From an uncultured Opitutaceae bacterium (GTDB lineage: Bacteria > Verrucomicrobiota > Verrucomicrobiia > Opitutales > Opitutaceae), in contig CAZMFB010000011.1 in the NCBI GenBank assembly GCA_964565475.1, forward strand, positions 12,137-76,136: a stretch of 64,000 nucleotides of DNA, in the 5' to 3' direction. Every line of letters begins with the position of its first letter. Position 1 is the first letter of the stretch. The translations under genes were made by a program, and so were the position numbers. The notes under the pieces are model-generated. The model saw only the letters and a program-made list of their open reading frames with translations. It ran no database searches and was not told the origin of the DNA. Of this stretch, positions 12,545 to 63,692 are shown piece after piece.

Positions 12545-12572
12545 GCCCGCCTTCGCCAAGGCTACGGCGGGC
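12545..12572. repeat. REP-like hairpin with GTA/GAA internal loop, just past the GIY-YIG stop
   Basis: GCCCGCC TTC GCC AA GGC TAC GGCGGGC; core CCTTCGCCAAGGCTACGG identical to the copy at 17610-17635. Confidence 0.85.
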
Positions 12573-12835: not shown

Positions 12836-12959
12836 GAGCCCGTGCTTCGCTCTACGAGCTTCGCAGGGCTCCATTCTTCGCTCGTAATTTTGGGAGCGAA
12901 ACAGAGCGTCACCTGATTGGCAATGGCAGCGCCATGCGTAGCCCCAAAGGGGCGAAGAA
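12836..12959 (-). repeat. Structured element abutting the tmRNA 3' end; homologous to 63510-63618
   Basis: Two internal-loop hairpins; 13-bp inverted repeat 12869-12881/12952-12964; GCGCCATGCGTAGC shared with the tRNA-Gly copy. Confidence 0.85.
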
Positions 12960-13309
12960 TGGAGGTGAGGGGAGTTGAACCCCTGTGCCCCGGGCCTTCA
13001 CGCACAGCATCTACCTATATAGCGTCGGTTTGGATCTCGCCTCGGGCGGCGCGTGGACGCGCGCTCCGCCTTCGGCCAGCCGTGGTTGAAGATACGGCGG
13101 CGGGGTCACGACGGCCCCCACCGCTATTCCTGCTGTCGACGTTCCCAGCCCCTAGCAGGAGTCAGAGTGGGAACGTGACCGCACTTAGGCGGCCATTAGC
13201 ATTTCTTCGTTGTTGCCATTTGTTTTTTCGAAGGGGGATTAACGAGAGGCCCCCGACTCTCGACAGGCAGCTGCGCGCTCCAACCAAGGGTCGAATCCGG
13301 AACACCCCC
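12960..13309 (-). ncRNA. ssrA: tmRNA; tag peptide (A)GNNEEMLMAA at 13217-13185; CCA not encoded
   Basis: 5' GGGGGTGTTCCGGATTCGAC, acceptor stem GGGGGTG/CACCTCC with G3-U, T arm GGTTCAACTCC, tag ORF ending AA-stop. Confidence 0.96.
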
Positions 13310-17609: not shown

Positions 17610-17635
17610 TCCTCCTTCGCCAAGGCTACGGAGGA
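17610..17635. repeat. REP-like GTA/GAA hairpin abutting the duplicated putA end
   Basis: TCCTCC TTC GCC AA GGC TAC GGAGGA; outer stem covaries with the 12545-12572 copy. Confidence 0.85.
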
Positions 17636-62185: not shown

Positions 62186-62761
62186 GTGAGGATCACCGGA
62201 GGCAGGGCAAAAGGCATACCGTTGGTTCTGCCAAAAGGGGACGCGGTAAGGCCCGCCACGGATGCGATGCGGCAGGCGGTGTTTTCAAGCCTGGCGGCCG
62301 TGGTGCCCGGCGCGGTTTTCTGGGATATGTTCGCCGGCAGCGGTGCCTACGGACTGGAGGCGCTGAGCCGGGGCGCGACGGGCGGTATTTTTGTGGAGGC
62401 GAACGCCAAGGCGCTGACATGCGTTCGCACCAACCTCGCCGCCGTGGCGAAGAGTCTGGGCGTCGAGGGGGACTGCGCGCGGGTGGTGCAGGCGGATGCG
62501 ACCAAGGGGGCCTGGATCGGCGGCCCGGTGCCGGACCTGGTGTTCGTGGATCCGCCGTATGAGATCATCGAGGGAGTTGCACCGCAGTTGTTCGGGATGT
62601 TTGATGAATCGCTCGCAGCGAACCCGGATGCACTCGTCGTGTTCGAGATGCCCGGTGAAACGGAGCTCGCACCATCTGGCTGGGAATTGATCAAGCGTCT
62701 GGGCAAAGGCGCCCGGCAGCCGACGGCGTGCTTCTACCGGAAGGCGCGCGGCCCGGGCTAG
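62186..62761 (+). CDS. rsmD: 16S rRNA m2G966 methyltransferase
   Basis: MRITGG, RPATD, DMFAGSGAYGLEALSRGA, VFVDPPY. Confidence 0.93.
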   Translation: MRITGGRAKGIPLVLPKGDAVRPATDAMRQAVFSSLAAVVPGAVFWDMFAGSGAYGLEALSRGATGGIFVEANAKALTCVRTNLAAVAKSLGVEGDCARVVQADATKGAWIGGPVPDLVFVDPPYEIIEGVAPQLFGMFDESLAANPDALVVFEMPGETELAPSGWELIKRLGKGARQPTACFYRKARGPG

Positions 62762-63489
62762 GGCTCACCTGTCTTGGCACGGATCAGCGAGAGGGCGGCG
62801 ACCACGGCGGTCTCGGTGCGCAGGACGCGGCGGCCGAGATGCGCAAAGCGGAATTGCCGGCGGCGCAGCGCCTCCCGGTCGCGCTGGGTCCAGCCGCGCT
62901 CGGGTCCGATTGCAATGGCTACGCCCCGCTGCGGGGGCACCGCGACATCGGCCAAGCGCTCCGAGGCCTCGTAGTTGTCCAAGGCCAGGCAGATGGATTC
63001 CGGGGCCAGAGCCGCGAGGGCGGCGAAGGCGGCTTCAAGGGTGTCACCTGACCGCACCTCGGGCATAAAGGTGCTGCCGGCCTGCTCGGCGCCGGCGAGC
63101 ACGTGCTGTTTCCATTCGCCGGTGGACCAGAGTCTGCTGGCGGCATAGCTGGGTTCGCTGCGTTCGGTGGCGACAAACCAGAGCGCCGTGGCGCCGAGCG
63201 TGGTGGCGTCGCGGAGAATGTCCCGCGCGGTCTGCGGACGGGGCAGGCCCACGATCAATGTGTGCGAATGCGGCGTGGGTGGGGCGATGGTGTCCCAGAC
63301 AAAACCGAGGTGCAGCGCCTCGGGGGCGTCGTGCACGAGCGTGGCCTTGCCGAGCGGTCCATTGACCAGCCCGACTTGGAAGGAGTCACCGGGTTTCCGT
63401 CGCAGGACTTTCAAGATGTGGGCGGCGCGACGGTCTGCGCGGGGCAGGGGCCGGGCGATTTCGTCGGGCGAGAAGAGGACGAGATTCAA
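62758..63489 (-). CDS. rsmE: 16S rRNA m3U1498 methyltransferase
   Basis: HILKVLR, AEQA, IGPERGW, LGRRVLRTETA; TTG start. Confidence 0.93.
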   Translation of the reverse strand: MNLVLFSPDEIARPLPRADRRAAHILKVLRRKPGDSFQVGLVNGPLGKATLVHDAPEALHLGFVWDTIAPPTPHSHTLIVGLPRPQTARDILRDATTLGATALWFVATERSEPSYAASRLWSTGEWKQHVLAGAEQAGSTFMPEVRSGDTLEAAFAALAALAPESICLALDNYEASERLADVAVPPQRGVAIAIGPERGWTQRDREALRRRQFRFAHLGRRVLRTETAVVAALSLIRAKTGEP

Positions 63490-63509
63490 GGGGAAACAAT
63501 CAAGAGGCG

Positions 63510-63618
63510 GCCTTACTTCGCTCTTCGAGCTACATAGGGCATGCTTCGCATTCGATGGCGCTAATGATTAAAATATTTGGGCTGGCTGCGCCATGCGTAG
63601 CTGCGCCGCAGCGAAGCA
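63510..63618 (-). repeat. Structured element abutting the tRNA-Gly 3' end; homologous to 12836-12959
   Basis: Two internal-loop hairpins, 10-bp inverted repeat 63540-63549/63611-63620, shared GCGCCATGCGTAGC. Confidence 0.85.
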
Positions 63619-63692
63619 TGGTGCGGGCAGACGGAATCGAACCGTCGACACCTGCTTGGAAGGCAGAGGTTTTACCACTAAACTATGCCCGC
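63619..63692 (-). tRNA. tRNA-Gly(TCC), CCA encoded
   Basis: GCGGGCA/TGCCCGC acceptor stem, anticodon loop CTTCCAA, GGTTCGATTCC T arm. Confidence 0.96.

Follow-up and report, generated by a model that had tools for sequence, protein, structure and literature searches.

The window, meaning the whole stretch of DNA that was analysed, comprises 64,000 nucleotides from an uncultured Opitutaceae bacterium. The genome is labelled G000, the window corresponds to G000:C11:12137-76136, and the closest sampled relative is labelled G008. Towards the end of the window, the tRNA-Gly(TCC) gene is followed by a gene-less cassette of short repeats and then, 21 nt after the last hairpin, by the start of an rsmE-type RNA methyltransferase gene. 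A second cassette is placed behind the tmRNA gene and is followed by the gene of a small GIY-YIG nuclease (P0001). The features are listed in Table 1.

Table 1. Features of the window that belong to, or adjoin, the two cassette copies.
Feature	Position in the window	Strand	Remarks
tRNA-Gly(TCC) gene, anchor of the gene-less copy	63619..63692	-	supplies its genomic CCA to the outer pairs of the first hairpin
Arm A, Gly copy	63611..63620	-	CA of CCA, variable dinucleotide, CTTCGC
Hairpin unit 1 (arms A and B), Gly copy	63591..63621	+	GTA/GAA internal loop on the + strand, opposite the tRNA transcript
Mini-hairpin E, Gly copy	63583..63593	-	TGGC-n-GCCA
Spacer, Gly copy	63550..63582	.	33 nt, AT-rich, 36% GC
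Arm C, Gly copy	63540..63549	-	exact reverse complement of arm A
Hairpin unit 2 (D), Gly copy	63511..63539	-	GTA/GAA internal loop and cGAAg loop on the tRNA strand
rsmE-type RNA methyltransferase gene	62758..63489	-	neighbour only, outside the element
tmRNA gene, anchor of the gene-bearing copy	12960..13309	-	without genomic CCA tail
Gene-bearing cassette copy behind the tmRNA	12839..12959	-	arms A to D
Arm A, tmRNA copy	12952-12964	-	with the tmRNA end
Arm B, tmRNA copy	12932-12942	-	
Mini-hairpin E, tmRNA copy	12924-12934	-	
Arm C, tmRNA copy	12869-12881	-	
Hairpin D, tmRNA copy	12839-12868	-	
GIY-YIG nuclease gene P0001	12579..12827	-	82 aa, single domain, Slx1/UPF0213-like fold
Further D-type hairpin unit, immediately after the nuclease gene	12546..12571	-	
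Solitary hairpin unit of the same family, away from tRNA	17610..17635 (approximate ends)	-	

On the strand of the RNA gene the cassette opens with arm A, made up of CCA, a variable dinucleotide and CTTCGC; an inner hairpin follows, and then arm B, which is composed of GCTACG, the dinucleotide and TGG. Subsequently come the mini-hairpin E, which ends in GCCA, a spacer, arm C (the reverse complement of arm A) and the hairpin D. The cassette consists of two copies of one polar hairpin unit, arranged head to head on opposite strands. In the Gly copy, arm A pairs imperfectly with arm B and perfectly with arm C, the 3' TGG of unit 1 is the complement of the tRNA CCA, and E terminates in a new CCA, the position at which other copies stack further modules. 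The spacer is unique, both within the genome and among the comparison loci searched. The Gly copy contains no ORF remnant and, when inspected as a possible tRNA-integrating island of the attL/attR type, neither an integrase ORF nor a tRNA-end duplicate. In the tmRNA copy, the pairing of arm C extends over 13 bp and includes the last five bases of the tmRNA.

The sequence-only reading of the window had pointed to a common architecture behind the tmRNA and the tRNA-Gly genes. The two copies stand in the same orientation, 50.7 kb apart, with all of the named motifs in place, among them the match of 18 out of 19 nt and the common CTTCGCTCT.CGAGCT. The swapped inner stems, the covarying long-range inverted repeat and the unrelated central spacers are present as well. 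The anchoring CCA of the tmRNA copy is the acceptor C71-C72-A73 of a gene without a genomic CCA tail. The compensatory changes ascribed to the Gly copy do not extend throughout: the outer stem of its hairpin D, read from the sequence, is decaying, with one mismatch and one wobble left uncompensated.

Of the 114,638 CCA sites in the genome, 48 precede an arm A, and in 8 of these 48 cases arms B and C are present as well. All eight full copies start exactly at the CCA of one of the 46 tRNA or tmRNA ends called by ARAGORN, while the same A+B+C search in the reversed genome returns none. Copies beyond the original pair are present, and their placement is not random. They are anchored at the genes of tRNA-Gly, -Asp, -Tyr, -Val and -Leu, of two tRNA-Arg and of the tmRNA, and two of the eight carry a GIY-YIG gene of 80-86 residues, the second one behind tRNA-Arg(TCT). 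Two orders of the cassette occur (A-B-C-D and A-C-D-B), together with partial and T-rich versions. The T-rich version, an A/C inverted repeat with hairpin D, is found in G000 behind tRNA-Ala(CGC) (C29:26400), tRNA-Gly(CCC) (C1:291167) and tRNA-Cys (C1:451419). In G008 it is found behind tRNA-Gly(TCC), tRNA-Ala(GGC) and the tmRNA, and at tRNA-Gly(TCC) it takes the place of the standard cassette. A different tRNA-end element of about 135 nt, which ends in a duplicated tRNA 3' end, occupies three further sites of G000, namely C4:54117 (tRNA-Ser(CGA)), C9:3105 (tRNA-Ser(GCT)) and C20:5476 (tRNA-Gln(TTG)); it is not present behind tRNA-Ser(CGA) in G008.

Contigs of public sequencing runs from two studies other than the possible source study cover all or most of the Gly cassette with two letters differing, so the cassette is not an assembly error. 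In a related organism (run X8), 89 letters differ in the interval 63490-63619, the divergence beginning at the CCA. The neighbouring rsmE gene shows a 9-nt in-frame deletion (window positions 63019-63027) in the contigs of runs X4 and X8 and not in those of X3 and X6, which is strain variation.

Among 151 genomes of the family, 67 contain the A+B pattern, versus 4 matches in the control. The 30 loci that were fetched contain 32 pattern matches: ARAGORN calls an RNA-gene end at 18 of them, a further 10 follow sequence that is evidently the 3' part of a tRNA, one is stacked 36 nt behind a tRNA and three are located elsewhere. The anchors comprise more than 30 different tRNA types and the tmRNA. 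Anchoring on C71-C72-A73 with the genomic CCA missing is seen clearly in three, and in two other, of the 43 element-bearing genes that read CCA at positions 71-73; the comparison with element-free genes is not significant, the cases being too few. At one tRNA-Val(TAC) locus (L100) a genomic CCG stands in place of the CCA, and the compensating base is found in arm B as well as in arm C, from which it follows that the stem of the element can override the CCA encoded by the tRNA gene. In Rfam searches, only tRNA and tmRNA reach the gathering score in the window, and the cassette has no hit at E<=1 in 20 loci; no described family covers it. The motif list of Weinberg et al. 2017 (PMC5737381), which reportedly includes a COG2827 motif, was compared by way of Rfam.

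The occupation of individual sites changes rapidly. Among 11 tRNA-Gly(TCC)-rsmE loci, four have the element, one has a decayed form and six have none. Between G000 and G008, 18 RNA genes bear an element in at least one genome; read by eye, seven do so in one genome only, five have different versions (tRNA-Gly(TCC) is one of these) and six are common to both. Behind tRNA-Arg(TCT) of G008, a new A-B-E module is placed between the CCA and a remnant of the G000-type arm A. Modules are stacked on the GCCA of E at other loci too, which indicates that each module provides a new CCA at its end. Eleven tandem duplications have their start in the interval from -17 to +12 relative to the CCA, some of them enclosing the nuclease gene, and duplicates of the tRNA end of 8-17 nt accompany some other copies. 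The spacer of the tmRNA copy is common to G000 and G008, so that spacers can be inherited. At two sites of G000 a solitary unit is nested in hairpin D (C20:53466, tRNA-Arg(CCG), and C1:501440, tRNA-Asp), and the tRNA-Arg(CCG) ortholog in G008 is without the nested unit.

The hairpin unit itself is about 30 nt long and comprises a CYTG-like leader (mostly CTTG, CCTG or CGTG), a covarying stem of 6 bp, a GWA/GAA internal loop and an inner hairpin closed by GC. The genome holds 55 units, against two in the reversed control, and 38 of them are located away from tRNAs. In DNA, high stability is characteristic of the mini-loops cGNAg and cTTg and of sheared G.A pairs. In hairpin D, the loops cGNAg and cYNg lie on the tRNA strand (19 and 30, against 2 and 0 in the reverse forms; n=75). 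In the CCA-containing hairpin (unit 1), they lie on the opposite strand (23 and 12, against 1 and 0; n=68), and the mismatches of unit 1 fit that strand by 10:3, with small counts. Since one transcript cannot hold both orientations, the opposed polarity of the units points to single-stranded DNA rather than to a pre-tRNA as the folded form.

Solitary units are inserted in frame in four genes of G000 (C20:38920, C20:14878, C1:677909 and C5:77380; loci L207-L210), which we take, from sequence motifs, to be uvrA-, mnmA-, rnr- and gamma-glutamyltransferase-like. The four orthologous coding sites of G008 lack the unit, and the same coding loops take other insertions in other species. The empty-site junctions in uvrA, mnmA and rnr fall in variable loops and have no clean ends. 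Duplications with a score >=12 flank 3 of 38 solitary units on the 3' side and 4 of 38 on the 5' side, compared with 1.3% of random sites, and are suggestive only.

The pairing between the arms is strongly maintained. The dinucleotide pairs are fully Watson-Crick in 70 of 78 trailers for A-B and in 52 of 61 for A-C (shuffle means of 16.8 and 12.7). In 34 aligned A-B hairpins, 97.6% of 340 cells are paired, with 48 two-sided changes, no one-sided change and a single G-U, a level of pairing reached in none of 500 shuffles. The compensatory changes that had been proposed for the tmRNA and Gly pair are indeed found between arms A and C; the local arm B of the tmRNA copy, on the other hand, is uncompensated, A and C having changed together to TT/AA while B keeps the older dinucleotide, CA. 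The same situation is found at tRNA-Val(CAC) in G008.

In 11 true cases among 70 elements, arm C is additionally 3-4 nt longer, the extra bases being complementary to the end of the resident tRNA (13 rows, of which two are filter artefacts, and one further row without the extension); many of these cases are related Bradyrhizobium-type tRNA-Ala loci that are not independent. A swap control, with the artefact rows included, gives 13 observed against a mean of 7.8 and a maximum of 12. The extensions match three acceptor ends, GTG behind CCACCA, GCG behind tRNA-Asp and GAG behind the tmRNA of the window, and reach 11 nt in two Mesorhizobium tRNA-Ser loci (L133, L140). Part of the covariation is probably templated copying, in which the distal arm would sometimes copy the resident tRNA end. 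The statement that structure and not sequence is conserved is, for this reason, only partly safe: the covariation is strong, but the local junction can serve as template for arm C, and compensation that is at least sometimes written in this way need not mean selection on an RNA structure.

The nuclease P0001 is an intact single-domain GIY-YIG protein, with PF01541 spanning residues 1-72 of its 82 and with the conserved Y17, G19, R27, H31 and E63. Its predicted structure (pLDDT 93.8) has HIGLE, UPF0213 and Slx1 as nearest solved structures (E 3e-4 to 4e-3), is far from I-TevI (E 2.1) and shows no extra domain. NCBIfam has no model for any of the 19 proteins searched. Among the best 80 relatives of P0001 in GTDB genomes, 64 have a tRNA or tmRNA gene on the same strand within 700 nt upstream, and in nearly all of these 64 loci the same cassette starts at the CCA. 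The 80 relatives belong to Alphaproteobacteria, Acidobacteria, Desulfobacterota-type deltas, Nitrospirota, PVC phyla, Marinimicrobia, Parcubacteria and others; among the relatives named in public records, those ranked highest are largely Opitutaceae. The hairpin unit lies beside the GIY-YIG gene in 57 of 64 loci with full flanks.

On a quick tree of 75 proteins, poorly resolved with one starred branch of 72, the tRNA label changes 33 times, the minimum being 13 and the shuffled mean 49.5. Judged from these sequences, the nuclease gene is clustered by tRNA and yet has moved between tRNAs many times. Gene-less matches are found in 38 of 58 family genomes with the GIY-YIG subfamily versus 19 of 93 without it (Fisher p 4e-8; a hand tally at a subfamily cut-off of E <= 1e-27, with p overstated, related genomes not being independent). 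G008, which is 91% complete, has many elements and no match to P0001, and this counts against a strict dependence. Pseudogenised copies of the nuclease with internal stops occur, and at one locus (L012) the nuclease copy is placed behind a displaced 3' fragment of a tmRNA. Viral contigs seldom encode the P0001-type protein (4 loci), and plasmids gave no match to it at E 1e-12; neither result points to a vehicle for the spread across phyla.

Other small GIY-YIG genes were encountered in the neighbourhood of tRNA genes or repeats. At one locus (L011, G014:C83), three of them lie behind three consecutive tRNA genes, the third one directly after tRNA-Pro, without a cassette and followed by a partial copy of tRNA-Pro. 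A more distant subfamily (L025, L026, L028, L029) is located beside or inside integron-integrase-like sequence and has a different flanking repeat.

The Gly cassette is a gene-less copy of a family of tRNA-end hairpins and, with fair confidence, is interpreted as a non-autonomous selfish DNA element that the small GIY-YIG nuclease encoded by other copies would mobilise in trans. The sequence-only reading had already offered the Gly copy as a non-autonomous partner of the GIY-YIG element, and this proposal is sustained by the common cassette, the absence of an ORF remnant, the co-occurrence and the fast turnover. Anatomy, exact anchoring, polarity, turnover and linkage to an intact nuclease gene are direct observations, and mobilisation by the nuclease is the step that we infer, by analogy. 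Lacking a gene and with its D stem in decay, the Gly copy itself is best read as a passenger. Some aspects fit the interpretation less well: the cassette is always in the orientation of the tRNA and its perfect A-C helix could form in a pre-tRNA, and pattern matches occur in the 19 genomes, mentioned above, that are without the subfamily.

In the proposed mechanism, the nuclease would bind the unit when the DNA is single-stranded (at the replication fork, in a transcription bubble or in incoming DNA), by analogy with SsnA (PMC11893778), and would cut a few bases 5' of it. Both cuts, one per strand, would face the spacer, which would explain why the spacers are unrelated. A CCA-ending 3' end at a tRNA gene would then pair with the TGG of the unit, repair synthesis would copy the unit, and the copying would return to the chromosome at the terminal GCCA of the unit. 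As an outcome, the cassette would follow the CCA, and the next insertion would have a fresh CCA at its disposal. Arm C, the duplications of tRNA ends and a large part of the covariation would be created or renewed when the strand folds back and is copied at this junction. With the insertion behind its gene, the tRNA remains intact, and the nuclease gene would acquire a promoter. The choice of the CCA of tRNA ends among all CCAs is the least certain step.

For this last step, a mature tRNA could itself act as primer: its CCA-3'OH would pair with TGG on single-stranded DNA released by the nuclease and prime synthesis, and the resulting tRNA-DNA chimera would anneal to its own gene and deliver the cassette behind the CCA. 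The exact anchoring to more than 30 tRNA types and the tmRNA, with the CCA as the sole common sequence, would be explained in this way. The modules, nevertheless, also stack on the internal GCCA of the cassette, which is no RNA end, several copies stand on C71-C72-A73 with the genomic CCA missing, and arm C and the duplications hold sequence of the tRNA gene that is most simply copied from DNA. Priming by tRNA is consequently regarded as improbable. Given the stacking on the internal GCCA and the few genes anchored on positions 71-73, a cue at the DNA level, such as a hairpin next to the CCA in a single-stranded tRNA gene, is favoured.

The same hairpins could have been adopted by the host as recognition marks. 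The nuclease would then cut single-stranded DNA at tRNA 3' ends and limit or steer recombination and the integration of islands, and the Gly copy would be a functional mark. The 3' ends of tRNA genes are the usual integration sites of islands, the nuclease behind the displaced tmRNA fragment of L012 is in line with this, and the motif is conserved across phyla; moreover, SsnA limits transformation in Neisseria (PMC11893778). Such a function is, on the other hand, hard to reconcile with the patchy presence (67 of 151 family genomes), the replacement between sister genomes, the decaying distal hairpin of the Gly copy and the pseudogenised nuclease copies, and a benefit to the host does not account for copies reaching new tRNAs. 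A domesticated system of this kind is considered unlikely, although it is not exclusive of a selfish element. Less probable again is an RNA 3'-trailer motif, the other possibility raised by the sequence-only reading, in which the pre-tRNA fold would sequester the CCA (through A-B or A-C) and tune 3' processing, termination or read-through into rsmE or, elsewhere, into the nuclease gene. The constant position on the 3' side, the orientation of the RNA gene, the strong A-B and A-C covariation and some CTTCGG loops on the sense strand are what an RNA motif would show. The special loops of the CCA hairpin, however, are on the non-transcribed strand, G-U pairs are almost absent (one in 340), no terminator-like site is found on the tRNA strand, six of the 11 tRNA-Gly(TCC)-rsmE loci lack the element, Rfam has no match, and the hairpin unit also stands alone inside coding genes. 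The RNA fold of tRNA and trailer is no better than that of shuffles (z -1.12), and the DNA fold gives z of -0.6/-0.7 for the Gly copy and about -2.9 for the tmRNA copy, values that are uninformative in that the energy model gives no reward to sheared G.A pairs or GNA loops. A side effect of the cassette on tRNA processing may nonetheless exist.

If the repeats were an ordinary REP/BIME family, with a RAYT (HUH) transposase as the agent of spread and the GIY-YIG gene as a bystander, the inverted doublets and the in-frame solitary copies, which resemble REPs, would be accounted for. The genome has four Y1_Tnp genes, and an abundance of GTAG repeats is reported for Opitutus terrae (PMC3733652). 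The 1.5 kb around each of these four genes, however, contain no unit, compared with 57 of 64 GIY-YIG loci that have one beside them, and the GTAG/GAAG letters of the unit form an internal loop in the stem and not an unpaired terminal tag; a spread by RAYT is thereby left as very improbable.

Taken beyond the window, the interpretation as a selfish element mobilised by the nuclease leads to a wider proposal, for and against which the weight is about equal: a minimal mobile element of an undescribed kind, in which an 80-residue single-strand nuclease and a G.A-hairpin DNA unit, without integrase, transposase or reverse transcriptase, would insert exactly behind any tRNA or tmRNA CCA by pairing with it, rebuild the target, seed gene-less copies and scatter 30-nt hairpins into genes across many phyla. 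If this is true, the Ssn principle of a tiny GIY-YIG protein and a single-stranded DNA hairpin would be extended to a second, cross-phylum subfamily with its own hairpin, and part of the many unassigned Slx1-like bacterial proteins would obtain a role. The insertion behind any tRNA CCA by a protein of 80 residues would constitute a new targeting rule, and the spread of short palindromic repeats that have no transposase would receive a testable account. It would also be a caution that covariation in tRNA trailers can arise by copying at the DNA level and not from RNA function. The biology of the Gly copy on its own is probably slight, as it looks like a decaying passenger.

Several known systems have features in common with the element. 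The REP, BIME and REPIN sequences with their RAYT are likewise polar palindromes of 20-40 bp that occur as singletons, inverted doublets or clusters, some of them in frame in genes, as described in the available text of Di Nocera et al. 2013 (PMC3733652). That text describes CGTC repeats that end in CCA tails and have no known transposase, and it describes no anchoring at tRNA genes (PMC3733652). In contrast to the GTAG and CGTC families, the unit described here is without the terminal tag and is tied to a GIY-YIG gene and not to RAYT. The O. terrae families listed in that survey may include the solitary unit (PMC3733652). The search for terminal inverted repeats common with an IS transposase was negative for the element. 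Rickettsia palindromic elements and bacterial MITEs are short palindromes found in frame in housekeeping genes, an insertion like that of the solitary units, and they differ from the cassette in not being known to have a fixed target at tRNA ends.

The SegB protein of phage T4 is a free-standing GIY-YIG gene product tied to tRNA genes, and its cleavage drives spread and segmental amplification; it is reported to cut double-stranded DNA at a 27-bp site with the T-arm motif and to home between allelic loci (PMC2330249, PMC13096335). The element described here differs in moving between non-homologous tRNA genes, in having gene-less copies and in the Slx1-type fold of its nuclease. P0001 has no I-TevI-like domain and no added DNA-binding domains, in which it departs from a homing endonuclease of the SegB type. 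The prokaryotic Slx1-like and UPF0213 proteins are also minimal stand-alone domains and give the best sequence and fold matches to P0001; in the available portion of PMC1564403, they are described as probable DNA-repair proteins, without a link to repeats or tRNA genes.

The closest parallel is offered by the Ssn nucleases (cd10448), where a tiny single-domain GIY-YIG gene also stands beside a polar imperfect hairpin that has a conserved 5' leader and belongs to a dispersed repeat (PMC11893778). According to the main text of that study, SsnA binds the polar hairpin as single-stranded DNA only and places its cut within the variable flank, a few bases upstream, and the authors liken the NTS/SRM unit to IS200/IS605-REP elements (Chenal et al. 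2025, PMC11893778). With 82 residues, P0001 is of Ssn size (single-domain GIY-YIG proteins of about 80-100 aa), and the strand polarity of the loops in the unit would fit recognition of the Ssn type. The SRM pattern, on the other hand, is found at neither of the two copies in the window, at none of the 55 units and at none of the 64 subfamily loci, a weak test in that the pattern also missed the flanks of 8 of 8 likely Ssn-type control genes. Most of these eight have, by eye, CGTC/TGTC-tagged hairpins, whereas the units described here lack such a tag. P0001 is weakly similar to the CGTC-flanked GIY-YIG proteins of the same genomes, with at best 36% identity and 35 bits, compared with 58-66% identity and 97-107 bits within its own subfamily, and is without their C-terminal extension. 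The CGTC-flanked proteins are presumably those of cd10448. The small GIY-YIG genes at L259, L260, L262, L263, L266, L267, L271 and L272, of a subfamily other than that of P0001 and with inverted hairpin flanks of the CGTC/TGTC type that the SRM pattern does not match, likely represent further Ssn specificities.

The position of the gene differs as well, as it lies downstream of a head-to-head doublet here and not between two repeats. Exact anchoring at the tRNA or tmRNA CCA sets the element apart, neither tRNA nor tmRNA occurring in the main text on the Ssn system (PMC11893778). The portions of the literature consulted describe no GIY-YIG hairpin element anchored at a tRNA CCA, while the solitary repeat may figure in the figures of PMC3733652 or in the supplements of PMC5737381 and PMC11893778. 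By analogy, the element likely works as a selfish pair of nuclease and hairpin of the Ssn type, with a different GIY-YIG subfamily, a different repeat and an undescribed rule of targeting to tRNA ends.
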